A DNA stretch of 64,000 nt, from positions 10,136 through 74,135 of the forward strand of contig UQSG01000001.1 of the NCBI GenBank assembly GCA_900543695.1, read 5' to 3'. The stretch is from an uncultured Clostridium sp. (GTDB lineage Bacteria > Bacillota > Clostridia > UBA1212 > UBA1255). A program made the translations under genes and the position numbers. The notes beneath the pieces were generated by a model that saw only the letters and a list, made by a program, of their open reading frames with translations, did no database searches and was not told where the DNA came from. Shown one piece after another: positions 93 through 31,053 of the stretch (position 1 is the stretch's first letter; each line of letters opens with the position of its first letter).

Positions 93-782
93 CTACTGCC
101 CATAGTAAGCCTTCGGCCCATGTTTTCTCTGATAATGCTTATCCAGGACGTACTGCGCCATGCTGCTTTCCGGATTTAAGAGAAGCGTTTTCAGATCCAT
201 CTCAGCCACGCGCTCCAATACAACGGCGTGGTATACGGAATCCGCGGCATCCTTCCCCCAGGTGAACGGTCCGTGGTTGCGGACGACAATTCCCGGGATG
301 CTCATTGCATCATAGCCGCCGGACAGGATCGTTTCCACAATCACCTTTCCCGTGTTTGCCTCATAGGCCTCCGCCACTTCCTCGCGCTTCAGTTCCCGCG
401 TACACGGAATATCTCCATAAAATGCATCGGCGTGCGTCGTTCCCAGGGCAGCGATCGGGATCCCCGCCTGCGCGAAAGCCACCGCATTTGTAGAATGCGT
501 ATGGGTAACGCCGCCGATTTCCGGAAACGCCCTGTACAGCTCCAGATGTGTCGGCGTATCGGAAGAAGGCTTCCATTTTCCTTCCACCAGATTGCCCTCC
601 AGATCGATCACAGACATATCCTCTGGCGACATCGCTGCATAATCGACGCCGGACGGCTTAATGACGACAAGACCGCGCTCCCGGTCGATTTCGCTTACAT
701 TTCCCCACGTATAAATCACAACGCCTTTTGCAACTAAATCAAGATTCGCAGCCAAGACGCGCTCTTTTAATTCTTCTAACAA
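93..782 (-). CDS. araD: L-ribulose-5-phosphate 4-epimerase (class II aldolase/adducin family; AraD/SgbE/UlaF)
   Basis: 229 aa, near end-to-end similarity to E. coli AraD from memory: [51 protein letters not shown]. The His/Asp metal-site motifs are conserved. Confidence 0.9.
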
Positions 783-797
783 AATTCCTGCCCCCTT

Positions 798-1640
798 TTA
801 AGCGTGTGTTTCCGCAGACCGCTGCAGAATACCGGATAAAAACGCATAAGCCGCTCGAAGCTCACGCTCCGCATCCCGATCTGGCAGACACCAGAATTCC
901 GCCGTAAACCGCAGAACACCCAGATCAAATAAAGTATCCGCAATCACCGGAAAATCAACTTTTCCTTCTCCAAAAAACAAGTTGCGGTAGATTCCCGGCT
1001 TCGTTTCTTTCAAATGTGCAGAAAAAAGATGTCCGGCGCCGCGGCGCAGATCCCCGGGAACGTCTTCCACCGCGTTGCTGATGTTTCCGGTATCGGGATA
1101 GACGCCCAAATAAGGCGAATCAATTTCCGATACATATTCCATGGCCTTTTCAACGGTATTCATAAAATCATTTTCCATTGTTTCCAGGCCCAGAATGACG
1201 CCGCAGGAGGCGGCCATTCTGGCAGAGCGAAAAAGATTTTCCGTAAAATATTTTTTTGTTTCCGAATCGGAGGTCTCGTTGTAATAAACGTCATATCCCG
1301 CCAGCTGAATGATCCGGATGCCAAGATCATAGGCAAGCGCAATCGCGTTCTCCATAATCTGCATCCCCTTCTCGCGGATTTCCGGGAAATGGCTGCCGAT
1401 CGGATATTTTCTGTGCGCGCTCAGGCAAATGGAGCTGACGCACAGCTCCTGCCTGCTCCATGCCGCGAATTCTCTTCGCTGGGCCTTGCTCCATTCCAGG
1501 CGCAGCTGACGCTCCTGTGTTTCATCGATACTCATTTCGATAAAATCAAAGCCGAGCTGTCCGGCCGCACTCATTTTATGCGGCCAGCTCCAGGCCTCCG
1601 GCATTGCCTTTTCATAAAGTCCAAGCTGATATGGCTTCAT
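798..1640 (-). CDS. ulaE: L-ribulose-5-phosphate 3-epimerase (UlaE/SgbU, xylose-isomerase-like TIM barrel)
   Basis: 280 aa. Start LGLYEKAMP..GFDFIEMSIDETQER and IIQLAGYDVYY..PGIYRNLFFGEGKVDF closely parallel E. coli UlaE. It lies immediately upstream of araD and is co-oriented. Confidence 0.85.
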   Translation of the reverse strand: MKPYQLGLYEKAMPEAWSWPHKMSAAGQLGFDFIEMSIDETQERQLRLEWSKAQRREFAAWSRQELCVSSICLSAHRKYPIGSHFPEIREKGMQIMENAIALAYDLGIRIIQLAGYDVYYNETSDSETKKYFTENLFRSARMAASCGVILGLETMENDFMNTVEKAMEYVSEIDSPYLGVYPDTGNISNAVEDVPGDLRRGAGHLFSAHLKETKPGIYRNLFFGEGKVDFPVIADTLFDLGVLRFTAEFWCLPDRDAERELRAAYAFLSGILQRSAETHA

Positions 1641-3910
1641 ATCTGGCTCCCCTTAACATATACGAAATAACGATCCTGTATTTTGCGGACAGATCCCTTC
1701 GCGCCGCCGGCAATCTGAATTTCCGGCCTGTTGAAGGGCCCCATACGGATCCAATCTACAGCGGCGTCACCGTTCCAGTCCGCGGTATAGCTGCATTCGC
1801 CGTCAGAAGCGGTAATTTTGCCGGCTCCTGTGCCGCGCCGGTAAGAGAACGAGAACGGAACCACCGTACGGTCCGCTTTTGTAACGGTATATGCCTCCGT
1901 TTCCAGAGAGGTCCAGCCGTCCGGAAGACGCGGCACAAGACGGAGGCCCCGTTCCGGTGCAATATCGTCGATTCCCAGCAAAAGCCGCGCACATTTTACG
2001 ATTTCCGCCTGCTGAACTGCATTTCCAAGATCGCTGTTGCGATACCAGAACCGTTTCGACCCGTGGACGATCACGCCCTCCGGCACGATGTAGCTGTGAT
2101 CGGTATGATGATAGCAGAACATCGCCGCCGTTTCAATGCATTCCGTCATTTCCTCGTAGCGGTCCAGCATAATCGCCGACTGCGTCAGATAGCCCTGTCC
2201 GTAGCCCATCTGCCGTCCGGATTCCGGTGCATAAAATACTTCCTTCTGCGCCAGGAACGTACGGTTCAGCAAATCAAACCATTCCGGATGCTCATACGAC
2301 ATATCGTATCCAAACATATCGCTGTAAATCAGGAGGTCCACCATCCGCTTATATTCATACGTCCAGCAATCGTCCGTCGTATCTGTATATACCTTTCCGT
2401 AGCGCGGATGCTCCATCAGGAAATGTCTGCCGGCCGCCTCGCGGAGCGCTCCTGCAAAATCCGCAAGCTCAGAAGCATAATCCGCTTCACCAATTTCACG
2501 GAACAGCTCAGCGTATCCTAAAAGCGCAAAAGAAGAAATCAGATTGGAGAAAAGATCATAGCCGCCCGTAATCTGCGTGCTGGTCTCCGATTCTGAAAAT
2601 AAAATATCGGTAAAATTCGACTCCTTCGGATGCGCCTTCTGCCACAGGTAATAATCCGCGGCATCCTTCAGCTCCTTCCGGTGCTCCTGCAGCCACTGGC
2701 GATCCACGACGCCCTTCCGGAACAGAGTAAAGATAAACAGCATGACAGCCGCGTGTCCGTCGTTTTCCTTGCCTTCGTTAAATAAATCGTTTTCGTCCTT
2801 TGCAACCAGATTGGCCACGCGCTTCCAGTGCGGAATCGGGAAACGGACGGAAGGATAATACAGCAGCTTATGGAGGTAATCAGCCGCAGGCACCACGCGC
2901 TTAAAATAACCGAAATTGGTCAGCTCCATCAGCGTCCTTCCGATGTCGCGCGTCCAGACGTGGCCGCCGTAGCTGTCACTGTTTTCCTTAAAGGTTCCGA
3001 AGCCCAGATAGCAGCCAAAGTTGCACGTATACGGCGTGGAAGTATGCGAACGGCCATCGTCCTCAATTTTGCCGTGCGCCATATCCATAATGTTTGCACG
3101 GTAAACGTTCGTATAAACCTCCGCCATCGGCGCGCCGGAAAAAGTGACATCCGGTGCGTCGAAGCCTTCGATTTCTTTCTTTGCATCCGAAGCCGGCAGC
3201 TCGTCCCGGAACTGGTACAATCTGCGCGCCAAACGGTCAATATCCGCATAATAAGCTCTGCTTAAGAAAAAGTCCTGATCCACAAGCGTCCATTCCGGGC
3301 GCAGCTCACCGCCGGCCAGGAGGCCGGTTACGGCAGATACGGCTACGTTTGCACGCTTCGAGTCCTCCCGAAAAAGCATGATTTCCTTAATTTTCTTATC
3401 CGAACGGAGCCGGTATCCAAAAACCCATTTGGTGCATTTTTCCGCCGATTCCGAAGTATTTTCCATCAGCTTCATGGCAGCGTCCTTCAGCGCCTTCGCA
3501 TTCGGATCGGAGACGAAGGGCTCCTGATACGGGGCGTCAAATGCCATCAGCTGCTCTTCCTCTTTCGGACGATAGTACAAATTATAGTTCCACGCATTTA
3601 CGCCGAAGATCACGGAAATCAGATCCTCTGTACGGTCTTCAAATATCACGCGGATCCGCATGAGACGATCCCCCAGGAAAAGACGAATGGAATGATCATA
3701 CATTGCTTCGTTCTGCGCCCACCATTCCGAACAATAATCGGAATCGGTAGCCATTCCCAGGAAAAACAGGGCTTCACACGCTGCCGGGAACGCAAGCGTT
3801 TCGCGATCAATTTTGCGGACTACGCCGCGTTCGTTTCTCGAAACAGAAAACGGGATCCCACATACTTCCAGCGTTTCCGGTTTTTCAGTCTGCTGATATT
3901 GATAAAACAT
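1637..3910 (-). CDS. Large cytoplasmic glycoside-hydrolase-like protein, (alpha/alpha)6-barrel-like, family unassigned
   Basis: 757 aa with no signal peptide. Strong RBS AAGGAGGAAA-N5-ATG. ATGA overlap with the ulaE start indicates translational coupling. Motifs GHVWTRDIGRT, ENDGHAAVML and GQGYLTQSAIMLDRY are typical of six-hairpin glycosidases. Family not determinable by eye. Confidence 0.4.
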   Translation of the reverse strand: MFYQYQQTEKPETLEVCGIPFSVSRNERGVVRKIDRETLAFPAACEALFFLGMATDSDYCSEWWAQNEAMYDHSIRLFLGDRLMRIRVIFEDRTEDLISVIFGVNAWNYNLYYRPKEEEQLMAFDAPYQEPFVSDPNAKALKDAAMKLMENTSESAEKCTKWVFGYRLRSDKKIKEIMLFREDSKRANVAVSAVTGLLAGGELRPEWTLVDQDFFLSRAYYADIDRLARRLYQFRDELPASDAKKEIEGFDAPDVTFSGAPMAEVYTNVYRANIMDMAHGKIEDDGRSHTSTPYTCNFGCYLGFGTFKENSDSYGGHVWTRDIGRTLMELTNFGYFKRVVPAADYLHKLLYYPSVRFPIPHWKRVANLVAKDENDLFNEGKENDGHAAVMLFIFTLFRKGVVDRQWLQEHRKELKDAADYYLWQKAHPKESNFTDILFSESETSTQITGGYDLFSNLISSFALLGYAELFREIGEADYASELADFAGALREAAGRHFLMEHPRYGKVYTDTTDDCWTYEYKRMVDLLIYSDMFGYDMSYEHPEWFDLLNRTFLAQKEVFYAPESGRQMGYGQGYLTQSAIMLDRYEEMTECIETAAMFCYHHTDHSYIVPEGVIVHGSKRFWYRNSDLGNAVQQAEIVKCARLLLGIDDIAPERGLRLVPRLPDGWTSLETEAYTVTKADRTVVPFSFSYRRGTGAGKITASDGECSYTADWNGDAAVDWIRMGPFNRPEIQIAGGAKGSVRKIQDRYFVYVKGSQI

Positions 3911-3939
3911 AAGCTTTCCTCCTTATTCATTTTTATCGT

Positions 3940-6900
3940 TTATACATGTGCCGCCAGTGCAAAGATTCCGCCGGCTGCATCCGCCTCACTGGCGATGATT
4001 CGCAGCTCTTTCATTTCTTTAAATTCACCGAAGTCCAATTCCAGCAGGTTGAACACCGTGCTGCAGCACTCAATCGCGCGGTTTTTGCACCAGAGGCTCC
4101 GCTGCGGATAGGCCGGAGGCTGAGCCTGCCGGTAATCCGTTTCTCCCGGCGCGACGGGCATCGCAGGAATCTCGCTTCGGTCCGTATCCGGCACATATGT
4201 TGCAAACCCCGCAATCACCTCATTTCCGAAGCCCATATCGGCAGTGCCGGGATAATAAACATCATAGAGATATATGGGACGAAAATACGAGTCTTTTTTC
4301 ACGGCCTCCGCCTCTGCGCGGAAAATTCTGCTGAATACGTCATGGTTGTCGATAAAAGCGCTGAAAAGCACGTAAAGCTTTTTCATTTTCCGGCCTTCAA
4401 GCGAAATCGTGACAACTGGATGCTTCTCTTTGCTGAATGGAAGGAACCCGTTCGGATTCAGAGAAAGCGGGACGGAGGGCAAAATGGGAATGGCTCCGTA
4501 CTGCTCCCAAAGTCCTTTCATAAAGGAGTCCGGGCCCTGCATCATATGGCCATGCGAAGGATGCAGACCGATTTCCCTCCAGTACGCGCTCGGCTTGCAC
4601 GCCTCGTCCGGGATCGGGATCGGGACGACCTGCGCATGCGCCGGCGCGGCTTCGATCTCCAGCGGATAATGGATCGGGCCCTGCAAAGTGGCTTTGTTCT
4701 TACCGGGAGAAAAAAGAATCTCACCCGAGCGGATTGGGAAAACGATCGTTCCGTTTTGCTTCGGCAGAACGGTTCCCTCCGCAGTCAGAAGCTGTCTGCC
4801 AATCAGGAGCTTCCATCCGCCTGTAAGCGCCTTTTCAGACTGATTCCAGACTTCCACTAAAACGGAATTTTGCCCTGCCGCAGCGGCAGCGCGGCAATAT
4901 ACCGCGGGTAAAGAAACCAGCGCGCAGGGATGCAGGAATTCCCTGCCTCCAGCCCGCAGGCGCAGAAAGAGCATTCTTCTGGCAAAATTGAGAATTCCGA
5001 ACCATCCGTAGCATTCGTATTTTTCCAGCAAATCGCGGCGAACAGTTCCCGTGAGTTTATTATTCTGCCATTCCAGCGAGGAGAAAACACCGCAGCGGTC
5101 TTCCACGCCGATCAGCTCCGCATCGCCTTCTATCCGCAGAGAAAAAGAATCTCCGCAGGCCGCCGTCATCTCATAGGTGCAGCGGATCTGAATGGGTTCC
5201 CAAGAGCAGGATACCGTAAGATTTCTTCCGGAGCCTGCTTCAAATTCTACGCTGCTCCAGCCGCAGTGCAGCTCCGGCTCAAGCGTCCATTTTTTCCCTT
5301 CCGCTTCGGCCGTAACGCGGAAAGACGGCGGGCAAAGAACGCGTATAATCTTACGCGTGTCATCCTCTATTTGCAGCTGCATCGAAAAGCCGTTCGTTTT
5401 GGACGTGTAGCTGATTTTGACGCCAGGCAGCTGCAGAGAAGCCTCCGGCCAGTCCTCCGGAATACACGGCGCAATTACCGTTTTATTCTCCGGCATATCG
5501 CGCTTCAGGCCGAAAATCGACTCGATAACAGCCTGAGAAAATACCGCTGCCGAAGGAGAAAAATAAGCAAATCTTTTTTCGTTCGCCGTTTCCGGCCAGG
5601 ATCCGCGCTGATAGCTGCCGCACACTCTGCGCGCAATAAAGGACAGCGGACGCACGGCTTCTTTTTTCATGCCGACAGAGGCGTACGCAGCAGAAGCAAA
5701 CGGCTGCATGTCCGAGCCGCACTGCATTCCCCACGTGGGGACGCCCCAATACGCATGATCGCCAAAGTGATTGGACTGATAAATTTCGCCCTCCGGACCA
5801 GTCATTCGATGCAGCAGGTGATCCAGCGCAGAAACTTTATCAGGATCGTCAATTTCATCGTATAGGATGGGATAAGTAATGCCGTGATACGTTGTTTCCA
5901 GACGAAGCTCTCCGGAAATATCTTCGTACCATGCCGGTCTGCCGAGATCCTTCAGCCATAGGGTTCGATACCATTCCGCCCTGCATCTGCCCGCTTCGGC
6001 GGAATAAAACTCTGCCTCCTCCGGCTTTCCCAGGATCGATTTGATGTAGGACATGATTTCCATCATTCTCACGCCTTCGATTCCGGTTGCCGCACCCTTT
6101 CCCGGGGTGCTTTCGAAATCCTCCTGATTTCCGATCTGCGTTCCCCAGCCGATTACGCCGCTGCCAACGGGATCGTATTCCGCAAAGCTCTGCCATAAAG
6201 CTTTTTCCAGAAAAGGCTCCGCTTCCTCGGCAAAGGCGAGGTCTCCTGTCATTTTAATATAATGCTCTACTTCCCGGAAAAAAAACTGATTATTTCCGCC
6301 CCAGTCACGGCGCGCCGAACCATCGGGGCACAGATCAGGGATCGCGCCGCTTTCAAATACGCGCTGCATCTGGCTGCGGAGACATTCCCGCACTCTGTCG
6401 AATCGGCCATTCCATTCTTCTGCCGCAGTATGCTCCATATGCCACATCGTAGGCCAGTGCTGAATGCTTTCAATCCAGCCGTAAGGACGAAGCCATGCAT
6501 ATTCCACATTCAGCAGCGCATGTCCGAATGCTTCGTTCAGCGCAGCATCCGGAGTATGAATCCGCCACTGTGCCAGAAGATCATCATAATAGCGGATGAC
6601 GCGTTCTTCCTCTTTTACCGGATCGCATCCGGCCAGCTCGACAGCACGCTCTTCCTGTTCTGAAAATCCAACGACGGCAAACAAATCCGTTCCCGTTCCG
6701 TTTGCCACTGCATACGTGCCGTACCTTCCGAAATCGCCCTCTAAAGACATAATCTTGAGATCGGAAAAGTTCCCCTTTACCGCCGTGACGAGCGGACGCT
6801 CTTCGCGCCGGATCAGGACCGTATTGCCGGACAGCTCAGCCGAGCCATGCTCGCAGTCGATTTTTTCTCCGGCCATGCTCTGATTGGGAGAGAAATGCAT

Positions 6901-7326: not shown

Positions 7327-7492
7327 CGTTCATTCTCCTTTGCATTCTACTTTCCGCAGGATTCATTTGCCCTCATTATATCGGGCGCCTGCTGAAGGTA
7401 AAATTGCACAAAACATATTATTGATGGACAAAAGCGCAAAACTGTGCTAAAATCTGAAAAAGAAAGAACAAGAAAAAGGATGAGTTTATTTT

Positions 7493-8305
7493 ATGCCGAA
7501 AATAAAATATGTTGGCCGGTTATATGAAAATACGTACCGCATCAATCTTCACACGCATGATTTCTGGGAAATTGTACGCTATACCAAAGGAAGCGGTCTG
7601 GTAGAAATTGACGGAGAAATCATTCCTTTTCAGGAAAACGATATTTTTGCGATCCCGCCGAATGTCCCGCATACGGACTATTCCGATACGGGCTTTCAGA
7701 ATTATCATTACACCTTCAATGATGACGACTTCAACAGACTCTCTTATATGAAGTTTCCGGATACGGAGAACAACGATTTTCTGACGATCATGAAGCAGCT
7801 CTATCACGAATATCATTTGAAGCGCAAAAATTATCAAAACATTATAGACAGCCTCTATACGGTTTTGTTTCACTATATTCTGGCATTGTCCGAAGAAGCG
7901 GAAAGCAATCAATATGTAGCGCTTGTCATCAATGAAATCATCAGCAATATTTCTAATCCGGAATATGAAATTCAGCAGACACTGCAAAAAATTCCGTTAA
8001 CGGAAGACTATTTTAGAAAATTATTTTTCCAGGAGACCGGAAAGACGCCGCTCCAGTATCTCACGCAGAAGCGAATCTCTTTTGCAAAGCAGCTGCTCTG
8101 TCTTCAGGCCCATTCCGGGATTTCCATTCAGGAAATTGCCTGGCGGTCCGGATTTGCAGACAATTATTATTTTTCCCGTGTTTTTAAAAAGGTTACGGGC
8201 GTCAGCCCCAAATATTGGGCGGAGTACGACAAACAAAAAGCAGAGGAAGATAATGAGCTTCCCAAGCGCAATTATCTTCCTCCTGAGACAAAGGATTATG
8301 AATAA
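7493..8305 (+). CDS. AraC/XylS-family transcriptional regulator (N-terminal cupin sensor, C-terminal HTH)
   Basis: 270 aa. C-terminal AraC signature ..QEIAWRSGFADNYYFSRVFKKVTGVSPKYW. N-terminal beta-rich cupin region. Sits in the sugar locus divergent to the 1128-aa GH. Confidence 0.85.
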   Translation: MPKIKYVGRLYENTYRINLHTHDFWEIVRYTKGSGLVEIDGEIIPFQENDIFAIPPNVPHTDYSDTGFQNYHYTFNDDDFNRLSYMKFPDTENNDFLTIMKQLYHEYHLKRKNYQNIIDSLYTVLFHYILALSEEAESNQYVALVINEIISNISNPEYEIQQTLQKIPLTEDYFRKLFFQETGKTPLQYLTQKRISFAKQLLCLQAHSGISIQEIAWRSGFADNYYFSRVFKKVTGVSPKYWAEYDKQKAEEDNELPKRNYLPPETKDYE

Positions 8306-8340
8306 AGCGGTCTTAATGGATCGCTTTATTTCTTTTTCTT
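8304..8340 (+). terminator. Intrinsic terminator after the AraC-family gene
   Basis: Hairpin AAAGCGGTC-ttaatg-GATCGCTTT followed by ATTTCTTTTTCTT, 1 nt after the stop codon. Confidence 0.55.
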
Positions 8341-9489
8341 GCTTCGTACGATCACAACGACGAAGATGATTACAACAACTGCAATCGCGCCGATCAGCAC
8401 ATAAACCAGCCAGCCGTTTCCGCTGTCCGCATCCTCTGTGCTGCCATTCGTCGTCGGTACGGGCGTCTTTTCCGCAGCAGGCGTTCCGTCTGTTCCTGCA
8501 GTCGGCTCCGTCTCCGACGTAGGCTGTTCGGGAGCCGGCGTGCTTTCTTCCGCCTTCTCATAGACAGCCAGGTTATCAAGGCCAAAATTATTAGCGCGGT
8601 TGATAAAAGCAAACAGGCCTGTTACCGGTACCACGGCTTCATCGACGGTAGCCACAACCGCACCCTCAGCGTCTTTGATTTCCACCTTGCGATAGGAATC
8701 GCCGGAGAAGAGCTCCATTCCTGCCAGAGAAGTATCCCAGTAATTTTCATTCCAATGCGTCGTCACCTCGTCCGGTTCGGACATCGTAATCGTGCAGACG
8801 AGATTATCTTCTACGTATACGGCAATCTCGCCGTTCTCCTCCTGCACGCAGACAGACGTAAATTCCGTGAAATTAACGCCCTCGGGCATCTGGAACTGGT
8901 AGGAAACGGTGTATGCGCCGAGCATCCTGTCCGCCGCGTTTTCTACGACGCCGGTCGTCGCCTCGCCGTTAATCGGTCCCGCCGTGCCGCCATTTTTGTT
9001 TGTGTGTACGCCTACCTCCAGGATATTATCAAAAAAGTAAATAAACACGCCGGCAGCGCCCAGGAAGGACGTCAGATCCTTATCCTCATTGTCCGGCTCG
9101 ATCACCATGCCAACGGAATCGGCGGGAACGTGCAGCGCCAACGCGGATTTATAGGCATTTTCCGCCAAATTTCCGGGGATTGCCGTTTTAATGTCGAACT
9201 GCACACGGTAGTCAATCACCTCGTACATGGAATACACATAAGCCCCAGAAGGGAACATGCCGTTGTAATACGTGTTGTCGCCTTCTGTTACGACATTTTC
9301 CGCCTTTACATCGTAAGTGTTAAAATACGTGTAGAAATCGTCGGGAAGCACGCCGTCATAGCCCTCAAAATCGGTTACATATGCTTCGTTAAAGCTTTCC
9401 GGGAGCTCCGGAACAGCTGCTAGGGCCGGCAAAACGCCTGCAAAAGCCATGACTGCCGCCAAAAGACTTGCTATTATTTTTCGTTTCAT
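8326..9489 (-). CDS. Secreted cell-surface protein: signal peptide, beta-rich domain, Pro/Thr/Glu linker, C-terminal transmembrane anchor with KKKK tail
   Basis: 387 aa. N-terminal MKRKIIASLLAAVMAFAGVLPALAA signal peptide. Linker ..STPAPEQPTSETEPTAGTDGTPAAEKTPVPTT. C-terminal WLVYVLIGAIAVVVIIFVVVIVRSKKKK. RBS GAGAGGAG. Confidence 0.6.
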   Translation of the reverse strand: MKRKIIASLLAAVMAFAGVLPALAAVPELPESFNEAYVTDFEGYDGVLPDDFYTYFNTYDVKAENVVTEGDNTYYNGMFPSGAYVYSMYEVIDYRVQFDIKTAIPGNLAENAYKSALALHVPADSVGMVIEPDNEDKDLTSFLGAAGVFIYFFDNILEVGVHTNKNGGTAGPINGEATTGVVENAADRMLGAYTVSYQFQMPEGVNFTEFTSVCVQEENGEIAVYVEDNLVCTITMSEPDEVTTHWNENYWDTSLAGMELFSGDSYRKVEIKDAEGAVVATVDEAVVPVTGLFAFINRANNFGLDNLAVYEKAEESTPAPEQPTSETEPTAGTDGTPAAEKTPVPTTNGSTEDADSGNGWLVYVLIGAIAVVVIIFVVVIVRSKKKK

Positions 9490-9508
9490 AAAATGACTCC
9501 TCTCTTTG

Positions 9509-11029
9509 TTACGATTCCGACGGAATCGTATATTCTGTTACGGTACTTTCTCCGAATGTGTTGCGCGTCTGAATATAGCAGACATTTCCGTCTCTTTCTT
9601 CGGGGAGCTCGACACCGTCATTAATATTGTAATAGACCCATTCCCCCTGCGTCTCCGCATCAAAGGAAATCCGGTATTCGGTTGGATAGCCATCCAGGGA
9701 AAGGAAAAGCGCATCGTCGTCTGAAGAAAGGACCTCAGGGGCAGGCGGCGCCTCCTGCTTCCAGTAATTCAGCTTATACAGATTTGTTTTGACATTGTCA
9801 AACACAAGAAAACCGAAATCCACATTTGGTTCAATATGGGTGCTGCCATACAGCGACACTCCCTCCTGCGGCTGCTCCTTCCAGGCCATCGCATAATTAA
9901 AGCGGTTGATCAGAAGCGCTTTGGGAGACAGCTCCGCCACACCGCGGAGCGTACGTTCAAACGTCGTCTGACCGTTTACAATGTGATTCAGCTCATCCCA
10001 GTTCTCGCCGCCTTTATGGAGCGAGGCCCAGGCGATCATTTGCTCCACGCTTCCATCCGCAGCGTCTTTGTGGAAAATACGGTACATGCCTTCCCCGGCG
10101 TCAGGATCCTCTTCAGATTCTACAAAGAACCAAAGCGGCACATCGCCGGAAATGGACTTGCTTCCATCCTTCTGCTCTTCCGTATATGGAGACAAATAGC
10201 CGTTGCTGAAGCGAATATTGAAGCGCTCATCATCAAATATTTCAGTCCCCTCCGCTACTTTTTTCTGAAGCTCTGAATCAATAAAAATGATGAGAAACGG
10301 CTTGGAAGCGCGATCGGTCCCGTCCTGCAGACGATACCAGGCATCAGGATACTGTTCGTACAGCGTATAAACATCCGTCAGCACTTCATTCAGCGCATCG
10401 TAATTTTCCCCACTGAGCCGCACTGTAATGTAAATCTTGGGCGATTCGAAGCCAAGCGACGCCGATGCCTCCTTTAGAAGCACCTCCGTGTTTGCATAGA
10501 CTCCGTACGTATATTTATACCAGTCCTGTCCCGGCGTTTCCAGCCGGTAAGAAGTATAGTTGGTCCAGTCTACCGCCACGCCGTTGCAGCCGAGCGCTGA
10601 CATCCAATACAAATGCTGTCTGGCCGTTTCCGGATCTCTTTGATCATATAGGCCCATCAGCGGCGTTGTCGTCCGGTAATTGCCGCTCACCTGGACTGTG
10701 TCGGGATGCTGCGGGTTCAGCGGCCACCACCCTCTTTGCGGACGGCCGTTCGTCGTCGGTCCCGTGTCGATATCATACCACATAATCATATCCATGGTTC
10801 TTCTGCCCTCTTCTCTTGCGCTGAGCGTCTGCGGCTTTTCCACCGGTTTCGGTTCAGCAGCTCCTCTGCCGACATAGAAATAGATTCCAACCGCACACAG
10901 CACGGCCGCGCAAACAACCGCTGTTAAAGTGCAGCCCTTTGCCGAAAGCCTTTTCTTTGCATACAGTACAAACAGAAGAAGCGCGGCGATAACCGCCAGG
11001 AAAACAAGAAGCAATATTTTTACAAGCAT
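9509..11029 (-). CDS. N-terminally membrane-anchored extracytoplasmic protein, possible glycan-active enzyme
   Basis: 506 aa. Two N-terminal hydrophobic helices (LLLVFLAVIAALLLFVLYA; LTAVVCAAVLCAVGIYFYV) followed by a large soluble domain with an aromatic-rich segment HLYWMSALGCNGVAVDWTNYTSY. Function is inferred only from context. Confidence 0.35.
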   Translation of the reverse strand: MLVKILLLVFLAVIAALLLFVLYAKKRLSAKGCTLTAVVCAAVLCAVGIYFYVGRGAAEPKPVEKPQTLSAREEGRRTMDMIMWYDIDTGPTTNGRPQRGWWPLNPQHPDTVQVSGNYRTTTPLMGLYDQRDPETARQHLYWMSALGCNGVAVDWTNYTSYRLETPGQDWYKYTYGVYANTEVLLKEASASLGFESPKIYITVRLSGENYDALNEVLTDVYTLYEQYPDAWYRLQDGTDRASKPFLIIFIDSELQKKVAEGTEIFDDERFNIRFSNGYLSPYTEEQKDGSKSISGDVPLWFFVESEEDPDAGEGMYRIFHKDAADGSVEQMIAWASLHKGGENWDELNHIVNGQTTFERTLRGVAELSPKALLINRFNYAMAWKEQPQEGVSLYGSTHIEPNVDFGFLVFDNVKTNLYKLNYWKQEAPPAPEVLSSDDDALFLSLDGYPTEYRISFDAETQGEWVYYNINDGVELPEERDGNVCYIQTRNTFGESTVTEYTIPSES

Positions 11030-11052
11030 ACTATGCCACGCCTCCTATTTTT

Positions 11053-12174
11053 TCATGCATTGTTTTTTCTGCGCCGGATCACAATCCCAGCCGTCGCGCC
11101 AATGAGAAACGCCGCTGAAATGCCGAGCAGAAGTCCGGAATCACCGGTTGACGGGTTCGGCTTCTCCGGATCGGGATTCTGGTCCGGGTTCTGATCATCC
11201 GGATCGACAGGAATCTCAGGATCAACCGGATCCTCCGCCTCCGCCGTCTTACTGAGCTTCAGCGCATCCAGACGCGCACAGAATCTTCCGGAGCCATTGT
11301 CAACGCTAGAAATCGTGATTTTATGAATTCCTGCGGCCAGCTCTATCTCGCCCAGCTCCTGCTCTTCAAGCGTCCAGCCGCCGTCATGGTACAGATTGAC
11401 CGGCTCGCCAATCTCCTGACCATCGATCGCAATCTGAACGGAGCAGCTGTCATTGTTTAAGATGTAGGCAAGAGAAACGTTGTATTTTCCGGACTGCGGA
11501 ACAACGAGAGACACCGTTTCCAGAGAACGTCCAGCTTCATAGAAGTCCACGTTGACTATGGCGTCAACCGGCAGCGCTTCATGCGTGTAATTGCTTTCCA
11601 GATGGAATTCATCAGATTTGGTATATGCGTTTCCTTCAAATTCAAAGACAATTTCATCCGAGGGCGTCAGCTCCTCCAGGGTAAGATAATCCAGCAGCGC
11701 GCAGTAATACGCCGACTCCTGACTTGTAAAGGTCAGCGTATGCGTGCCTGCGGACAAAGTCATCAGGCCGACCGTTTTTTTACCAGCCTCCCAGCCGGCG
11801 CCGTTGTTCAGATTGATCTGACTGTCAATTACAGTGCCGTCAATTTTCATTTCTAAAATTCCGCCGTCCTGGTTCAATACGTATCCTAAAGTAATGAGAT
11901 AAATAGCTTCCTTTTCTACAGTGAACGTAGTTTCCAGAGCGTTTCCTGCCTCATAAAAGTTTACGTTCGCCGCACTTTCTACCGGGAGCGCCTCATGCAC
12001 AAAAGGCACCTCGAGAAAAAATTCTCCAGTTTGTGTCCATTCCTGATCTTCCAGCTCGAAGGTGATCTGCTCCTCGGCCGCACCTGCCGGAAGCAGGCTG
12101 CAAGCAAAAAGCGCCGCAACCACAAAGAAAATTAGGAAGCTAGCTTTACTTTTTCTTAATCCATGTTTTACCAT
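11053..12174 (-). CDS. Secreted surface protein with two tandem ~125-aa carbohydrate-binding-like beta-sandwich repeats, Pro/Asp linker and C-terminal transmembrane anchor
   Basis: Start reassigned to the internal Met (MVKHGLRKSKASFLIFFVVAALFAC), which follows RBS AAGGAGGA-N9-ATG. Repeat 1 ITFELEDQEW..LDYLTLEEL and repeat 2 IVFEFEGNAY..LDALKLSK are clearly homologous. Linker DPVDPEIPVDPDDQNPDQNPDPEKPNP. C-terminal LLLGISAAFLIGATAGIVIRRRKNNA. Confidence 0.55.
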   Translation of the reverse strand: MVKHGLRKSKASFLIFFVVAALFACSLLPAGAAEEQITFELEDQEWTQTGEFFLEVPFVHEALPVESAANVNFYEAGNALETTFTVEKEAIYLITLGYVLNQDGGILEMKIDGTVIDSQINLNNGAGWEAGKKTVGLMTLSAGTHTLTFTSQESAYYCALLDYLTLEELTPSDEIVFEFEGNAYTKSDEFHLESNYTHEALPVDAIVNVDFYEAGRSLETVSLVVPQSGKYNVSLAYILNNDSCSVQIAIDGQEIGEPVNLYHDGGWTLEEQELGEIELAAGIHKITISSVDNGSGRFCARLDALKLSKTAEAEDPVDPEIPVDPDDQNPDQNPDPEKPNPSTGDSGLLLGISAAFLIGATAGIVIRRRKNNA

Positions 12175-12338
12175 TTTAAAAATCCTCCTTTTCTTTTGAC
12201 AACTGTTCTGCCTAAAAAGATACCCCAAACATACATTCTTTTAAATAGACATTATCGTTTTTTTGTTGGACAATTCATAACACATTTTTTTGTAAAAAAT
12301 GTTTGGCGATAAGAAAATCTGGATATTTTTGTAAAAAA

Positions 12339-12373
12339 GAAGATAATTTCAATTTTAATTTGAAATTATCTTC
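12339..12373. repeat. Perfect 14-bp AT-rich inverted repeat (GAAGATAATTTCAA-N7-TTGAAATTATCTTC) between the kinase and surface-protein genes
   Basis: Read directly. On the minus strand it is followed by a U-run, so it could be a weak terminator after the kinase gene, or an operator. Flanked by two TTTTTGTAAAAAA direct repeats in an AT-rich ~190-bp spacer. Confidence 0.5.
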
Positions 12374-12421
12374 GAAAAACCAAATAATACAGCTTTCTTA
12401 TATTTTGTACAAAACCGAGCT

Positions 12422-13885
12422 TCAGCGTTCCAGCATTTCCTGATACAGAGCATATTTTTCTCTGTAGACAGGAACCTTATGCGCGTCCGGAGAAAAGGTC
12501 TTCCGAATATGAACCATTTCTCTGGCAGCCGTATGATAATCCGGATATGCGCCGCAGCAAATGGAAGCAGCGATCGCAGCGCCCATTGCGCCGAGCTCTT
12601 TTCCGTCTACGACCTGCAGGGGCGTCTCAAGAACGTCGGCAAACAGCTGCATCCACACATCTGAATTTGCCGCGCCGCCCGCAATTCGAATATAAGGCGG
12701 CGTCTTTCTGTACTTCAGCAGTCTTTCAACATGCTGCTTGTGGGAAAATGCGACGCCCTCATATACCGCCCGCAGAAGATGCTCCGTACCATGACCGCTG
12801 TGCAGTCCTACCCACGCAGCATGCTTCCGGTTCCGTGCGTTGCTGCCGTATAAAAACGGGAAAAACAGAAGCGAAGAGGATTCCGGCGCTACAGAGGCCA
12901 CCATATTGTCGATTTCCCCGTAAGAGGGCTTATCCTTCCCAAACAATATGCCGCGTACCCAGTCCAGATTCCCTGCGGAAGTCGGACTGCTTTCTTCGAT
13001 AAGGTAATATCCCGGCATACAGAAAAGCGAATGATTCACGCCCTCCTCCGGCGCAACCGGTTCCTGCGATATATATTCGTTGATGCTCCACGTTCCGGTA
13101 ATAACGCAGATTGGAACGGAATCAGAGACGTCCATGGCGATCGCGCAGGCATCGATATCGAACATGCCTCCGCACACCGGAATTCCCTCGGGAAGCCCCG
13201 TACAGGCCGCTGCTTCTTTCGTTACGCAGCCACAGTGCGCTGAGGAATCCGCTAACGGCGGCAGACATTCCGCAATCTCCGGGATTCCGTAAAGTCTCAG
13301 CAATTCCGGATCATACGCTTTCTTCCGGAGGTTCAGAAGTCCCGTTCCGGAGGAATCCGTATATTCAGCGAAAGGACGGCCTGTCAGCATAAAGCGGATA
13401 TAATCCTTTGCTTCAAACACCCATTGAATGTTCTGATATACCTCCGGCTGATTCCGCTTCAGCCAGGCAAGGAGCGCAGTCGGCTGACATGCCAGAGTGG
13501 ATTGAAGATTCAGCAGCCCCGCCTGCGCCGTCGTTCCGTTCTGCTCCCATTCCCGAACGAGCTCGGCCGCCCGCTGGTCTGTCGAAGCAATTGCCGGCGC
13601 GCACGGTTTGCCGTCCTTTCCCCAGAGATACAGTCCTTTCCCATGACCGGTACATCCCACTGCGGCAATTTTCTCCGGAGCAATGCCGGAAGCAGATATC
13701 GCCTTTTGTATGGCAGCCGTCGTCTTCTCCCACAGAAAAATCATATCCCGTTCGTGATAGCCTTCCCGCACCACTGTAACGGGAGTTTGTTCAGAGGCAG
13801 CGCTCATCTGCTGCCCGCTGGAGGAAAATACGGCGGCCTTGATATTGGTTCCGCCATTGTCAATCCCTACAAAATATCGTTCCAT
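12422..13885 (-). CDS. FGGY-family carbohydrate kinase (pentulose kinase; L-xylulokinase/ribulokinase-like)
   Basis: 487 aa. N-terminal GIDNGGTNIKAAVF actin-fold ATPase motif. C-terminal FGGY motif IRIAGGAANSDVWMQLFADVLETP. RBS GAGGAG-N8-ATG. Sits between the isomerase-like gene and the surface-protein genes. Confidence 0.75.
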   Translation of the reverse strand: MERYFVGIDNGGTNIKAAVFSSSGQQMSAASEQTPVTVVREGYHERDMIFLWEKTTAAIQKAISASGIAPEKIAAVGCTGHGKGLYLWGKDGKPCAPAIASTDQRAAELVREWEQNGTTAQAGLLNLQSTLACQPTALLAWLKRNQPEVYQNIQWVFEAKDYIRFMLTGRPFAEYTDSSGTGLLNLRKKAYDPELLRLYGIPEIAECLPPLADSSAHCGCVTKEAAACTGLPEGIPVCGGMFDIDACAIAMDVSDSVPICVITGTWSINEYISQEPVAPEEGVNHSLFCMPGYYLIEESSPTSAGNLDWVRGILFGKDKPSYGEIDNMVASVAPESSSLLFFPFLYGSNARNRKHAAWVGLHSGHGTEHLLRAVYEGVAFSHKQHVERLLKYRKTPPYIRIAGGAANSDVWMQLFADVLETPLQVVDGKELGAMGAAIAASICCGAYPDYHTAAREMVHIRKTFSPDAHKVPVYREKYALYQEMLER

Positions 13886-13906
13886 ATCCCGTTTCTCCTC
13901 TGTCCG

Positions 13907-15100
13907 TTATGCCTGCGCCTCGGCAGCAGGATAATGCTTCAGCATAACAAGCGGTTCATATGCGCTGGCATTTTCGACGAGCACGCCGTTCGAAGCGGCA
14001 GGATAAGAAACAAAAAATTCATCTTCGCTTTTCTGTCCAAAGCGCAGCATGGTCGCCGCAGCACAGCGCTGCCCGGCCAGCTTGCCGTAGCCCTGCACAA
14101 CGATGCAGCCGTATGCGGTGTCATCCGTGATCCGTGCAGAGCAGCCTGGATATACAGTCAGCTCTTTTGCCGCAATGTACTCGTTTCCGTATACAATCTG
14201 CTTTACCATATAGCTTTCCGTTTGTTCCAAAATAATGGGCGGACGGAAATAGTGTTCTTTATATTGCGGATCGATGTTCTTTTCCCAGTCCATCATTTCA
14301 ATAACATAGTCCGGATCTCCCCAATGCTCCGGCGGACAGTTTTCATAGAGGAAGCTGTCGTCATAGATTTCGCTGTCAGTAATATTTTCGAAGACCGCAT
14401 TTACGTCCGAATTCCACTGCGGTTCATAAGTAAGATAGGAGCCGGGAGCATGCAGCACTCCGGGCGGCGTATACCAGCCGGTTCCCAATTCGATCCGATA
14501 CGCTCTGGAAAGCTCTGTGATCCGCAGATCCCGCTTTTGATAGTCCCTCAGACGTTCCCGCAGATCATCCTTGGTGGTATCCGCAGTAAATCCAAAATAA
14601 GTGTGCGGAAATTTTCCGGGATAGTTATTATATTGCGGCGGATAATAATACGCCTCCGGTTTTCCCAGCTTTCCGACGCGCGCTGCAGCTTCAAAGCCCA
14701 GATGCATATGATGGAACAGAGGTCCCTCGTAATCAAAAAATTTGGAGTACATCGGCCACGTCTGGTGCCGTCTGTAACAGTTCTCTCCGATCATTTCTTC
14801 CCGAAGCGTATCGACAAATGCCTTCAGCGTGATTCTTTCCCCGCTGCAGCCATCCAGGTTTACATAGCTCATACCTTCGTCCGGCGCGGCGTCGGGGCCG
14901 TTCATTGCTGTAATTACAGAAGAAAACCAGCGTTCCTTAATGGAACCGCGTTTTGTGCCAAGCGCATAATAATCATCGGGATGCAGCCGCAGACGTCTGC
15001 CCGCCGTTCCGAAGCGGCGCGGTACGAATGTCGGGATAAGCGGAAGAACACCGCCGCGATCCTGAAAAAATGAATTTATAATTTCTTTTTCTGAACTCAT
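13907..15100 (-). CDS. Type-I phosphomannose-isomerase-like cupin protein (putative sugar aldose-ketose isomerase)
   Basis: 397 aa. Segments KFFDYEGPLFHHMHLGFE, EAYYYP and GTGWYTPPGVLHAPGS..EPQWNSDVNAVF parallel the Zn-binding and cupin motifs of class I PMI (KLLD..SIQVHPDD; ECWYII; FYYVPSGTLHA..ETQQNSDATYRV) as recalled. RBS AAAGGAAGAG. Confidence 0.45.
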   Translation of the reverse strand: MSSEKEIINSFFQDRGGVLPLIPTFVPRRFGTAGRRLRLHPDDYYALGTKRGSIKERWFSSVITAMNGPDAAPDEGMSYVNLDGCSGERITLKAFVDTLREEMIGENCYRRHQTWPMYSKFFDYEGPLFHHMHLGFEAAARVGKLGKPEAYYYPPQYNNYPGKFPHTYFGFTADTTKDDLRERLRDYQKRDLRITELSRAYRIELGTGWYTPPGVLHAPGSYLTYEPQWNSDVNAVFENITDSEIYDDSFLYENCPPEHWGDPDYVIEMMDWEKNIDPQYKEHYFRPPIILEQTESYMVKQIVYGNEYIAAKELTVYPGCSARITDDTAYGCIVVQGYGKLAGQRCAAATMLRFGQKSEDEFFVSYPAASNGVLVENASAYEPLVMLKHYPAAEAQA

Positions 15101-15840: not shown

Positions 15841-16566
15841 TTATAAAACCTTAGAAAGAAAGTCCTTCGTCCGTGCGTGCTGCGGATTTCCAAACAGCTC
15901 CTCCGGCGTGTTTTGTTCGATGATCACGCCTTCATCCATAAACAGGACGCGGTTTGCCACCTCTTTTGCAAATCCCATCTCGTGTGTTACCACAATCATC
16001 GTCATGCCTTCATCCGCCAGCTCGTGCATCAGAGACAGCACCTCGCCTACCATTTCCGGATCCAGCGCGCTCGTCGGTTCGTCAAACAGCATAACCTCCG
16101 GATTCATGGCAAGCGCCCGCACGATCGCAACACGCTGCTTCTGCCCTCCGGAAATCATGGAGGGATACGCGTTGACCTTGTCCGCAAGCCCGATCCGTTT
16201 CAGCAGCCGGTTCGCATTTTCCGCCGCCTCTTCCTTTGTTTGCAGCTTCAGCTTTACCGGAGCAAAAGAAATATTTTCCAGAATTGTAAAATGAGGAAAT
16301 AAATTAAAATGCTGAAAAACCATCCCCATGCTGCAGCGGATTTTATTAATATCCACATTTGGTGCCGTAATATCCACGCCTTTAAAAAGCACCTTTCCGC
16401 TCGTGGGCGTTTCCAGCAGGTTCAGGCAGCGCAGGAACGTGCTCTTTCCCGAGCCGGAAGGGCCTATCACGACAACCTTTTCATTTTTTTGAATTTTCTC
16501 GCTGATACCGTTTAATACGATTTTTTTGCCGTCAAACGTCTTTACGAGATTTTCAGTTTCGATCAC
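15841..16566 (-). CDS. Polar amino acid-type ABC transporter ATP-binding protein (GlnQ/HisP-like)
   Basis: 241 aa. Walker [10 protein letters not shown]. Signature [15 protein letters not shown]. Walker [13 protein letters not shown]-loop VVTHEM. Start overlaps the permease stop by 14 nt. Confidence 0.9.
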
Positions 16567-29637: not shown

Positions 29638-29654
29638 GAAAGAGGTGTGTTTCC

Positions 29655-31022: not shown

Positions 31023-31053
31023 TAATAGATTATAAAGGAAAGAGGTAACGCAT

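Follow-up and report, generated by a model that had tools for sequence, protein, structure and literature searches.

Gene Content of the Locus

Our analyses cover a window of 64,000 nt (the whole stretch of DNA that was analysed) from a Clostridiales bacterium of the human gut, which corresponds to positions 10,136 to 74,135 of the forward strand of contig UQSG01000001.1 (assembly GCA_900543695.1); all positions given below are those of this window. The region 93-15100 encodes an AraD, an UlaE/SgbU, an FGGY kinase, an AraC regulator, three surface proteins, two large proteins, and a 397 aa cupin protein referred to here as PMIL, all of which lie where the original prediction had placed them. 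The features identified are as follows:

93..782, minus strand: AraD/SgbE/UlaF-type L-ribulose-5-P 4-epimerase (NF006047)
798..1640, minus strand: UlaE/SgbU-type L-xylulose-5-P / L-ribulose-5-P 3-epimerase (NF009689, TIGR00542)
1637..3910, minus strand: candidate glycosidase of 757 aa from an unassigned family, cytoplasmic and partly (alpha/alpha)6-like (weak profile matches)
3940..7326, minus strand: candidate glycosidase of 1128 aa from an unassigned family, cytoplasmic and partly (alpha/alpha)6-like (weak profile matches)
7493..8305, plus strand: AraC-family regulator (AraC_binding and HTH_18 domains)
8326..9489, minus strand: 387 aa protein having a signal peptide and, at its C-terminus, a membrane anchor (from sequence)
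9509..11029, minus strand: 506 aa extracellular protein with an N-terminal membrane anchor, candidate secreted carbohydrate-active enzyme
11053..12228, minus strand: surface protein of 391 aa, which carries a C-terminal sortase anchor of the NPXTG type and two modules resembling CBM6/CBM35 (CBM_6, 2.8e-9)
12339..12373, minus strand: terminator-like hairpin (14-bp stem and T-run) closing the PMIL-kinase transcription unit
12422..13885, minus strand: probable LyxK-type (L-xylulokinase-type) FGGY kinase (FGGY_N and FGGY_C domains; E. coli LyxK best match)
13907..15100, minus strand: PMIL, a 397 aa PMI-like bicupin, predicted metal-dependent aldose-ketose isomerase for a free sugar (profile and fold)

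PMIL Is a Remote Relative of Class I Phosphomannose Isomerases

The 397 aa protein had been described as a PMI-like cupin, and this description is right by profile as well as by fold. A single-sequence search with PMIL against Pfam, NCBIfam, and the PDB gave no match, the PMI models of Pfam remaining unmatched even at an E value of 10; the profile of the PMIL family reaches PMI structures at 4e-8, and fold searches place PMIL in the three-domain bicupin fold of class I PMI, of which it is a remote relative (only 12-21% identity to ManA and PDB 1qwr, 1zx5, 2wfp, and 1pmi). The metal-ligand positions of this fold are occupied in PMIL by H131, H133, E149, and H217, and the catalytic Lys/Glu positions by K120, K147, and E226, all of which are conserved in 108-110 of 110 family members; expressed in the numbering of ManA, the equivalents of K86, Q97 (His in PMIL), H99, K132, E134, H255, and E264 are kept in the same proportion. 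There are also differences from class I PMI. The first metal ligand is His (H131) in PMIL, whereas it is Gln in PMI. In addition, the equivalent of ManA R274, which we take to be the arginine that binds the substrate phosphate, is position 236 of PMIL (in an alignment anchored by the H-x8-E-x3-NSD motif), where a hydrophobic residue (Val, Met, Ile, Phe, or Ala) is found in 107/110 members and Arg or Lys in 0/110. The genomic context differs as well, being that of pentulose catabolism for PMIL and of mannose metabolism for PMI.

On the basis of these sequence characteristics, PMIL is predicted to be an aldose-ketose isomerase of free sugars. A class I PMI has a measured side activity that converts L-lyxose to L-xylulose, and it also isomerises D-ribose and D-allose (PMC4718643). 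The PMIL family consists of >8000 sequence clusters and occurs in at least 593 species in many phyla, and its members are annotated as "hypothetical protein." Isomerisation of rare free pentoses by small metal-dependent cupins is exemplified by D-lyxose isomerase and L-ribose isomerase; however, these belong to other families and consist of a single cupin of about 180-250 aa, whereas PMIL is a bicupin, and no small cupin sugar isomerase structure ranked near PMIL in either of two fold searches.

The Kinase and the Two Epimerases

The presence of FGGY_N and FGGY_C domains agrees with the earlier assignment of the kinase to the FGGY family. Its top E. coli match is by far LyxK (36% identity; 325 bits, against 155 for LsrK, 122 for XylB, and 41 for AraB), as is also the case for 31 of 39 PMIL-co-located kinases in other genomes; on this comparison with E. 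coli paralogues the kinase is probably of the LyxK type. With the curated models of XylB, GlpK, AraB, FucK, and RhaB, the kinase scores under the cutoff in every case. Two identities that would have run counter to the original prediction, viz. xylulokinase (TIGR01312, 238 against a cutoff of 380) and glycerol kinase (TIGR01311, 150 against 590), were rejected on these scores.

Both epimerases proposed earlier are recognised by curated models. AraD scores 360 bits with NF006047 (cutoff 257) and shares 58% identity with E. coli AraD and UlaF, 55% with SgbE, and only 31% with FucA; its motifs HTHS, THAD, NHGPF, and C-terminal YYGQ align with those of SgbE. UlaE/SgbU clearly exceeds the cutoff of NF009689 (316 against 200) and barely that of TIGR00542 (275.1 against 272.15), with identities of 42% to E. 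coli SgbU and 40% to UlaE.

Conservation of the Gene Neighbourhood

The genomic context of PMIL in related sequences was compared in a synteny sample of 80 representative species-level loci. A LyxK-like kinase is present in 30 of these and UlaE in 25, always along with the kinase; of the 25 loci with both kinase and UlaE, 9 lack AraD, and PMIL, kinase, UlaE, and AraD are found together in 16/80. A free-ketose 3-epimerase-like TIM barrel adjoins PMIL in 14 other loci and never co-occurs with UlaE (0 cases), so that 39/80 loci pair PMIL with one or the other C3-epimerase-type enzyme, while 31/80 are without any partner within 10 kb. The combination of PMIL, kinase, and UlaE, with or without AraD, recurs with varying gene order in Bacillota, Bacteroidota, Spirochaetota, and Pseudomonadota. 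Dozens of species, belonging to several phyla, have the same partners beside their orthologues of the 397 aa protein; the clustering is thus beyond chance, and isomerase, kinase, UlaE, and AraD make up a conserved module. Carriers include Christensenella tenuis and Blautia sp. XA-2221.

Tblastn searches of the 64-kb window with E. coli AraA, AraB, XylA, FucI, RhaA, RhaD, SgbH, UlaD, UlaG, and UlaA found nothing, and the absence of AraA/AraB, of a RhaA-type isomerase, and of ula genes noted originally thus holds for the window. AraA, XylA, FucI, UlaD/SgbH, UlaG, UlaA, and RhaD are also absent from 80/80 PMIL loci, among which a YiaK-like reductase gave just two weak matches; the ula and yiaK-S genes looked for (UlaD/SgbH, UlaG, and UlaA) are found neither in the window nor in the 80 loci.

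These results bear upon the explanation that the locus holds no new pathway, AraD and UlaE serving canonical arabinose or ascorbate routes elsewhere, PMIL being an ordinary mannose-6-P isomerase, and their adjacency being incidental. PMIL does share the fold and catalytic residues of PMI, and the absence of araA/araB and ula genes pertains to the window and the 80 loci. However, PMIL matches no PMI model of Pfam and has a non-basic residue in place of the phosphate-binding Arg, the PMIL-kinase-UlaE set recurs in differing orders across the phyla named above, and ula or ara genes are near 0/80 loci. We consider this explanation extremely improbable.

A Predicted Pathway for a Rare L-Pentose

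We propose, at what we judge to be roughly even chances, that the four enzymes of the module form a pathway from a free aldose to D-xylulose-5-P. PMIL would isomerise the non-phosphorylated aldose to L-xylulose, the LyxK-type kinase would phosphorylate this to L-xylulose-5-P, UlaE/SgbU would invert C3 to give L-ribulose-5-P, and AraD would invert C4 to give D-xylulose-5-P, which would enter the pentose phosphate pathway. In this bacterium the module is split over two operons under the AraC regulator. The family and fold assignments, the residue conservation, the synteny, and the absences are observations; the isomerase activity, the free-sugar substrate, the sugar itself, the hydrolase roles, and the order of steps are deduced from them. 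The SgbU-then-SgbE route through L-xylulose-5-P, which formed part of the original prediction, is the most economical reading because the isomerase-kinase-UlaE-AraD set is conserved. As the starting aldose L-lyxose is the most probable, being favoured over L-xylose by indirect hints only; L-ribose, also listed as a candidate substrate, would make UlaE needless.

Known glycans very rarely contain L-lyxose or L-xylose, a scarcity that is hard to square with a family present in at least 593 species and counts against the pathway, as do the partnerless loci (31/80), the gaps in AraD (9/25), the 36% identity of the kinase to LyxK, and a FucU-scoring mutarotase described below.

PMIL is accompanied in other genomes by ribose-type CUT2 ABC transporters, which have RbsB as the closest match of their binding protein, and by RbsD/FucU or RhaM-like mutarotases, and a free reducing monosaccharide as substrate fits this company. 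D-ribose and L-lyxose are epimers at C4. Among the mutarotases, the most frequent partner is assigned to FucU by a score of 142 bits (cutoff 141), the known substrates of which are of the L-galacto and not the L-lyxo configuration.

Another reading is a D-sugar of the same C2/C3 configuration, with D-allose being isomerised to D-psicose or D-ribose to D-ribulose and AraD as a passenger; D-psicose would then undergo 3-epimerisation either in its free form or after phosphorylation, D-psicose-6-P in the latter case yielding D-fructose-6-P. The closest matches of the ABC binding proteins are those for ribose and allose, RbsD/FucU-family proteins are frequent partners of PMIL, D-psicose 3-epimerase is the top curated match of the TIM-barrel partner (though far below cutoff), a class I PMI acts on D-ribose and D-allose, and AraD is lacking from the nine loci noted above. 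However, the operon includes AraD in 16 loci, in this bacterium AraD and UlaE share a transcription unit, the top match of the kinase is LyxK, UlaE passes L-ribulose-5-P 3-epimerase models, and the usual bacterial enzymes for such sugars are ribokinase or AlsK/AlsE, and we regard a D-sugar as unlikely in comparison with the L-pentose.

No sugar transporter is present in 93-15100, the ABC system neighbouring it has an amino-acid-type permease, and the rest of the examined window consists of housekeeping genes; the original description of a complete capture-hydrolyse-import-catabolise locus was therefore overstated. That the locus has no importer though both candidate hydrolases (757 and 1128 aa) are without signal peptides is a further observation counting against the pathway.

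Relationship to Known Pathways

The cryptic L-lyxose/L-xylulose route of E. coli (RhaA, LyxK, SgbU, and SgbE; yiaK-S) has the same three downstream enzymes (identities of 36%, 42%, and 55%, respectively) and the same end product, D-xylulose-5-P, as that predicted here. It differs in its aldose-ketose step, which is carried out by the RhaA TIM barrel and is predicted here for a PMI-fold bicupin. The module would correspond to the L-xylulose arm of the yiaK-S (sgb) operon, with PMIL at the front instead of the ketogulonate reductase and decarboxylase; it has no SgbH, no TRAP transporter, and, apart from the two weak matches in the 80 loci, no YiaK.

This correspondence also admits the reading that PMIL is a non-homologous replacement of SgbH/UlaD, which would form L-xylulose-5-P from 3-keto-L-gulonate-6-P by way of a metal-stabilised enediolate in the breakdown of ketogulonate or ascorbate. 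LyxK phosphorylates 3-keto-L-gulonate too, E. coli lyxK-sgbH-sgbU-sgbE differs from PMIL-UlaE-kinase-AraD by the fourth gene only, and an UlaD/SgbH homologue occurs in 0/80 loci. Against this stand the hydrophobic residue at the phosphate-binding Arg position of PMIL, the PMIL-linked transporters, which are neutral-monosaccharide ABC systems with mutarotases and not TRAP or PTS systems, and the near absence of a YiaK-like reductase; to our knowledge there is also no PMI-fold decarboxylase. A decarboxylase role is in our estimate very unlikely, and isomerisation of a free sugar is the preferred reading of PMIL.

The final AraD reaction is shared with the L-arabinose pathway (AraA-AraB-AraD), but AraA and AraB are absent here and an extra C3 epimerase is needed, indicating that the intermediate would be L-xylulose and not L-ribulose. 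The module is widespread beyond the Gammaproteobacteria, unlike LyxK, which a 2011 survey found in that group only (PMC3245297). The predicted route for a rare L-pentose has not been described before.

More tentatively, and with the balance of probability against it, PMIL may represent a large family of isomerases for free sugars that has so far gone unrecognised and which, with new (alpha/alpha)6 glycosidase-like and secreted enzyme families, marks the use by bacteria, on a wide scale, of an L-lyxo- or L-xylo-pentose from a glycan or glycoside that glycobiology does not yet count among the common nutrients. If the predicted pathway is correct, a function would be provided for a conserved hypothetical family, including its members in abundant gut Clostridia, Blautia, and Christensenella, and the L-xylulose-5-P arm, familiar chiefly as a cryptic curiosity of E. 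coli, would be a mainstream pathway of anaerobes. Some dietary or microbial source of a rare L-pentose, yet to be identified, would be implied as well, along with several unassigned carbohydrate-active families that process this sugar, and the isomerase could be of use in rare-sugar production.

Large Proteins, Surface Proteins, and Regulator

The two cytoplasmic (alpha/alpha)6-like proteins are co-transcribed with the module and the three cell-surface proteins are encoded alongside; together these would presumably bind and cleave the glycan or glycoside from which the sugar is obtained. The two large proteins described originally as GH-like are present, and their GH nature is suggested by weak (alpha/alpha)6 similarity, neither having a match in Pfam or an assigned family. 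The profile of the 757 aa protein, whose stop codon overlaps the start of UlaE, gives weak partial matches to dextran dextrinase (9ju0, 4e-6), GH116 exo-beta-D-arabinofuranosidase (8ic6, 4.5e-3), GH125, and a rhamnosidase; its homologues, all annotated as "hypothetical," adjoin PMIL in 8/80 loci. The 1128 aa protein has a weak match to GDE_C and, by profile, to GH78 rhamnosidase B (2okx, E 0.015), and its homologues adjoin PMIL in loci L014 and L017.

For the AraC regulator and the three surface-anchored proteins, the expected domains, anchors, and signal sequences were found. The 387 aa protein matched no family, and the 506 aa protein has no match in Pfam or the PDB even with a profile; the latter belongs to a small family (61 clusters), some members of which carry dockerin or T9SS sorting domains. 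The 391 aa protein shows weak matches to LPXTG and NPXTG anchor models in addition to CBM_6; its start is probably an internal ATG giving 373 aa, the length at which the gene is called in L001, and a homologue adjoins PMIL and the kinase in L012. The AraC gene is divergent from that of the 1128 aa protein, and AraC homologues flank PMIL in 8/80 species-level loci and also in L005.

Gene Content and Organization of the Locus

Our analyses confirmed the genes listed in the original prediction at positions 93-15100, with the coordinates that it gave. All of them except the gene for the AraC regulator are located on the minus strand.

Genes of the locus (window positions, strand, product)
13907-15100, -, PMIL, the 397-aa phosphomannose isomerase (PMI)-like bicupin, no family match
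12422-13885, -, FGGY kinase (FGGY_N and FGGY_C)
11053-12228, -, surface protein with two CBM6/35-like modules and an NPXTG-type sortase signal
9509-11029, -, 506-aa protein with an N-terminal membrane anchor
8326-9489, -, 387-aa protein with a signal peptide and a C-terminal membrane anchor
7493-8305, +, AraC regulator (AraC_binding and HTH_18)
3940-7326, -, 1128-aa protein, no family match
1637-3910, -, 757-aa protein, no family match
798-1640, -, UlaE/SgbU (NF009689, 316 bits vs. 200; TIGR00542, 275 vs. 272)
93-782, -, AraD (NF006047, 360 bits vs. 257)

Judging from consensus scans and the spacing of the genes, the locus probably comprises four transcription units, viz. PMIL and the kinase, closed by a 14-bp hairpin (12373-12339); the three surface-protein genes; araC alone; and a unit divergent from araC that runs from the 1128-aa gene through the 757-aa gene and ulaE to araD, in which the stop codon of the 757-aa gene overlaps the ulaE start. 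The host is an uncultured member of the Clostridiales from the human gut. Database copies of the 397, 757, 1128, and 506-aa proteins in the host are named hypothetical only, and that of the kinase is annotated "carbohydrate kinase." Searches of the window by tblastn with E. coli AraA, AraB, XylA, FucI, RhaA, RhaD, SgbH, UlaD, UlaG, and UlaA gave no match, in agreement with the predicted lack of AraA, AraB, RhaA, and ula genes in these 64 kb; as the marker genes are absent, we rejected the canonical loci for the use of arabinose, rhamnose, fucose, xylose, or ascorbate.

The Kinase and the Two Epimerases

The kinase does not reach the curated cutoff of XylB, GlpK, AraB, FucK, RhaB, LsrK, or GntK, and its closest E. 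coli paralogue is the L-xylulokinase LyxK (325 bits, 36% identity over the full length), followed by LsrK (155 bits), XylB (122 bits), RhaB (47 bits), and AraB (41 bits). Hence, it is neither the xylulokinase of central metabolism (XylB) nor a glycerol kinase (GlpK), the two identities that would have refuted the original proposal, and both were rejected. UlaE is 42% identical to SgbU, and AraD is 55–58% identical to its E. coli counterparts; a FucA- or RhaD-type aldolase was rejected on the basis of 58% identity to AraD vs. 31% to FucA.

LyxK converts L-xylulose to L-xylulose-5-P, which UlaE/SgbU converts to L-ribulose-5-P, and to our knowledge the sole reaction of AraD is that of L-ribulose-5-P to D-xylulose-5-P. 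Compared with the E. coli operon lyxK-sgbH-sgbU-sgbE, the locus has the entire L-xylulose arm and lacks the decarboxylase, and its predicted downstream chemistry is identical to that of the cryptic L-lyxose/L-xylulose route of E. coli. A survey from 2011 found LyxK to be confined to a few Gammaproteobacteria (PMC3245297).

PMIL Represents a New Family with the PMI Fold

As a single sequence, PMIL has no match in Pfam or NCBIfam, even at an E value of 10, and none in the PDB. The family comprises at least 8000 clusters (at 64–98% identity), every one named "hypothetical protein" and lacking a Pfam domain, and clustering at 50% identity leaves 1237 representatives. A scan run with the closer rather than the diverse alignment located its genes in at least 593 species genomes, and they are found in the Bacillota, Bacteroidota, Verrucomicrobiota, Spirochaetota, Chloroflexota, Planctomycetota, and Pseudomonadota. 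A profile including distant members matches class I PMIs (1zx5, 4e-8; 1qwr, 3e-6; Salmonella PMI, 3e-4), and the structure model from the diverse alignment (pLDDT 93.9, pTM 0.92), which superseded a poor one from a shallow alignment (pLDDT 65), has the PMI fold. The original designation of a PMI-like cupin was thus correct, and PMIL falls outside the strict PMI family.

In the comparison with E. coli ManA, where hhalign covered the first motif only and the remainder was aligned by conserved motifs, the PMIL residues K120, H131, H133, K147, E149, H217, E226, and N230-S231-D232 correspond to ManA K86, Q97, H99, K132, E134, H255, E264, and N268-S269-D270, respectively, and V236 corresponds to R274. 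The metal and catalytic positions are kept in 108–110 of 110 family members, and position 236 is occupied by Val, Met, Ile, Phe, or Ala in 107 of 110 and by a basic residue in none. ManA R274 (R304 in Candida) presumably holds the phosphate of the substrate. PMIL therefore shares the fold and catalytic machinery of class I PMIs but not the phosphate-binding arginine, a pattern which suggests that it isomerises a free, non-phosphorylated sugar. This PMI-fold family of predicted isomerases is new, in that we found no curated model or structure for it and no paper on either the family or its module (viz. PMIL, the LyxK-like kinase, UlaE/SgbU, and AraD).

Besides L006 (8784-9983), about 20 PMIL loci carry two paralogues with 39–50% identity, both of which keep the metal ligands and lack a basic residue at the phosphate position. 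Such pairs suggest that the two paralogues isomerise in sequence or as alternatives, or that they form a heteromer.

Genomic Context of PMIL in Other Species

We examined 80 species-representative loci, each made up of the PMIL gene and its two flanks of at most 10 kb. Cultured carriers are Christensenella tenuis NSJ-35, Faecalicatena fissicatena KCTC 15010, Clostridium porci WCA-389, Cohnella thermotolerans DSM 17683, and Blautia sp. XA-2221. A LyxK-like kinase (at least 40% identity) is found in 30 of them, UlaE in 25 (the kinase always being present too), and AraD in 17, with all four genes together in 16. In 14 loci a free-ketose 3-epimerase-like TIM barrel directly follows PMIL; its top curated match is D-psicose 3-epimerase, far below the cutoff. 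UlaE and this TIM barrel share no locus (0/80), one or the other C3-epimerase-type enzyme is present in 39, and the TIM barrel looks like another solution to the C3 epimerase step, with the free ketose instead of the phosphate as its substrate. No partner was found within 10 kb in 31 loci, and AraA, XylA, FucI, UlaD/SgbH, UlaG, UlaA, and RhaD occur in none of the 80. The kinase-plus-UlaE form is seen in Bacillota, Bacteroidota, Spirochaetota, and one betaproteobacterium. Gene content is conserved while gene order varies between lineages, which indicates that the clustering is selected and not accidental; in a Mageeibacillus genome PMIL, the kinase, the CBM protein, and a 506-aa homologue are kept together. 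The conserved pairing of PMIL with the L-xylulose pathway in many anaerobes is new. That PMIL is an ordinary PMI whose adjacency to these genes is incidental, as its fold might imply, is hardly credible given the conserved synteny and a residue pattern unlike that of PMI.

Other recurrent neighbors are the second PMIL paralogue, ribose-type CUT2 ABC transporters (binding protein nearest RbsB; in clusters such as L006, L013, and L066), an RbsD/FucU-family (17 loci) or RhaM-like mutarotase, DUF4432 (10 loci), GFO/IDH/MocA oxidoreductases (10 loci), and homologues of the 757-aa (8 loci) and 1128-aa (2 loci) proteins. The transporters and the free-ketose epimerase would also fit a D-allose/D-psicose or D-ribose route, which we consider unlikely because the operon-embedded AraD and the LyxK affinity of the kinase are left unexplained. 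The attractive parallel with the E. coli operon could instead make PMIL an analogue of the SgbH/UlaD decarboxylase; this is quite improbable, since the phosphate-binding arginine is lost, the transporters are of neutral-sugar type, and a YiaK-type reductase is lacking.

URO-D/MtaA-like proteins adjoin PMIL genes in 10 of the 80 species loci (those named are L005, L008, L016, L017, L025, L033, L037, L046, L049, L050, and L055), and in Christensenella-type clusters (L006/L011/L013/L051) the PMIL pair is immediately preceded by a 449-aa protein that matches neither Pfam nor NCBIfam; demethylation and decarboxylation are possibilities for these proteins. DUF6259 proteins of about 700–790 aa stand beside the CUT2 transporter or PMIL in seven loci (L016, L017, L034, L035, L043, L049, and L059) from Bacteroidota, Chloroflexota, Spirochaetota, and Latescibacterota, and are a further family without an assigned function that is linked to the PMIL system. 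Three Clostridia (L074-L076) combine PMIL with a free-ketose epimerase-like protein, a XylB-like kinase, and a 494-aa protein bearing an L-fucose-isomerase C-terminal domain, and represent the same isomerase wired differently.

Proposed Pathway and Its Substrate

To connect the presumed hydrolases with the kinase, the window offers neither a redox enzyme nor a decarboxylase; hence, a single isomerisation must yield L-xylulose, and the aldose can only be L-lyxose or L-xylose. In the pathway that we propose, PMIL would isomerise L-lyxose or L-xylose to L-xylulose, the LyxK-like kinase would form L-xylulose-5-P, UlaE/SgbU would epimerise this to L-ribulose-5-P, and AraD would produce D-xylulose-5-P. 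The activities, the substrate, and the order of these steps are inferred from what we observed, viz. the identities, the fold, the residue pattern, the synteny, and the absent genes. L-ribose, among the substrates first suggested, does not fit, as UlaE would not be needed. Routes from D-arabinose, apiose, aceric acid, a uronate, or L-galactose were rejected on stereochemistry, since in no case would a C3 and a C4 epimerase both be required.

Indirect hints favor L-lyxose. It is the C4 epimer of D-ribose, and its C2/C3 configuration is also that of D-ribose and D-allose, a likeness that matches the ribose-type binding proteins and RbsD-family partners. L-lyxose is also the pentose analogue of L-rhamnose, and rhamnose-related hints include the RhaM-like mutarotase of some clusters, the weak GH78 rhamnosidase match of the 1128-aa protein, the GH106-family gene just past araD, and, in L008, a Bac_rhamnosid6H protein adjacent to the module. 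A last hint is that conversion of L-lyxose to L-xylulose has been measured for a class I PMI (PMC4718643). A Christensenella species whose API profile is weak on L-xylose, on a panel from which L-lyxose is absent, does not inform the choice between the two sugars. The main weakness of this explanation, and also the source of its interest, is the question of which natural compound would bring a rare L-pentose to such a number of bacteria.

Candidate Hydrolases, Surface Proteins, and Import

Single-sequence searches of Pfam, NCBIfam, and the PDB with the 757, 1128, 506, and 387-aa proteins returned nothing. Profiles of the 757-aa and 1128-aa proteins show weak, partial similarity to (alpha/alpha)6 glycosidases, the latter with a weak match to a GH78 rhamnosidase, so that their description as GH-like holds to that extent but without a family match. 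Both lack signal peptides here, whereas their Bacteroidales and Verrucomicrobia homologues have them; the homologues of the 757-aa protein are all unannotated. The family of the 506-aa protein is small (61 clusters), and the dockerin or T9SS tags of some of its members indicate that the protein is secreted; its family profile detected no relative of known structure in the PDB, and this membrane-anchored protein is a candidate new family of secreted carbohydrate-active enzymes. The association of PMIL with several presumed carbohydrate-active protein families that are as yet unassigned is likewise new.

Of the complete capture-hydrolyse-import-catabolise locus envisaged originally, capture and hydrolysis are plausible but unproven, and import is missing, as the locus contains no sugar importer. 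In the adjoining ABC system (15841-18622), the permease is of amino-acid type and carries a fused GH2-like ectodomain. This system is part of a three-gene operon (15841-20958, -), in which the genes for an ABC ATPase (15841-16566) and a 689-aa protein (16553-18622) are accompanied by that for a GH2 enzyme (18619-20958). A signal peptide, a GH2-like beta-sandwich ectodomain, and a polar-amino-acid-type ABC permease make up the 689-aa protein, the glycosidase-like domain occupying the usual place of the fused solute-binding domain in such permeases.

The window genes checked at 36.9–49.8 kb are housekeeping genes, and a 2-oxoacid dehydrogenase complex, followed by a DeoR regulator, is encoded at 27913-33525 (+); its E2 (574 aa) matches the lipoyl domain twice, its E3 has 455 aa, and its E1 alpha/beta is a single fused protein of 823 aa. 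Past the left edge of the window, in the locus that covers this DNA (L095, 10925-14712), a 714-aa gene of the GH106 (alpha-L-rhamnosidase) family directly follows araD in convergent orientation, next to a gene for a 497-aa protein without a Pfam match; the GH106-family gene indicates that the carbohydrate locus reaches beyond this edge.
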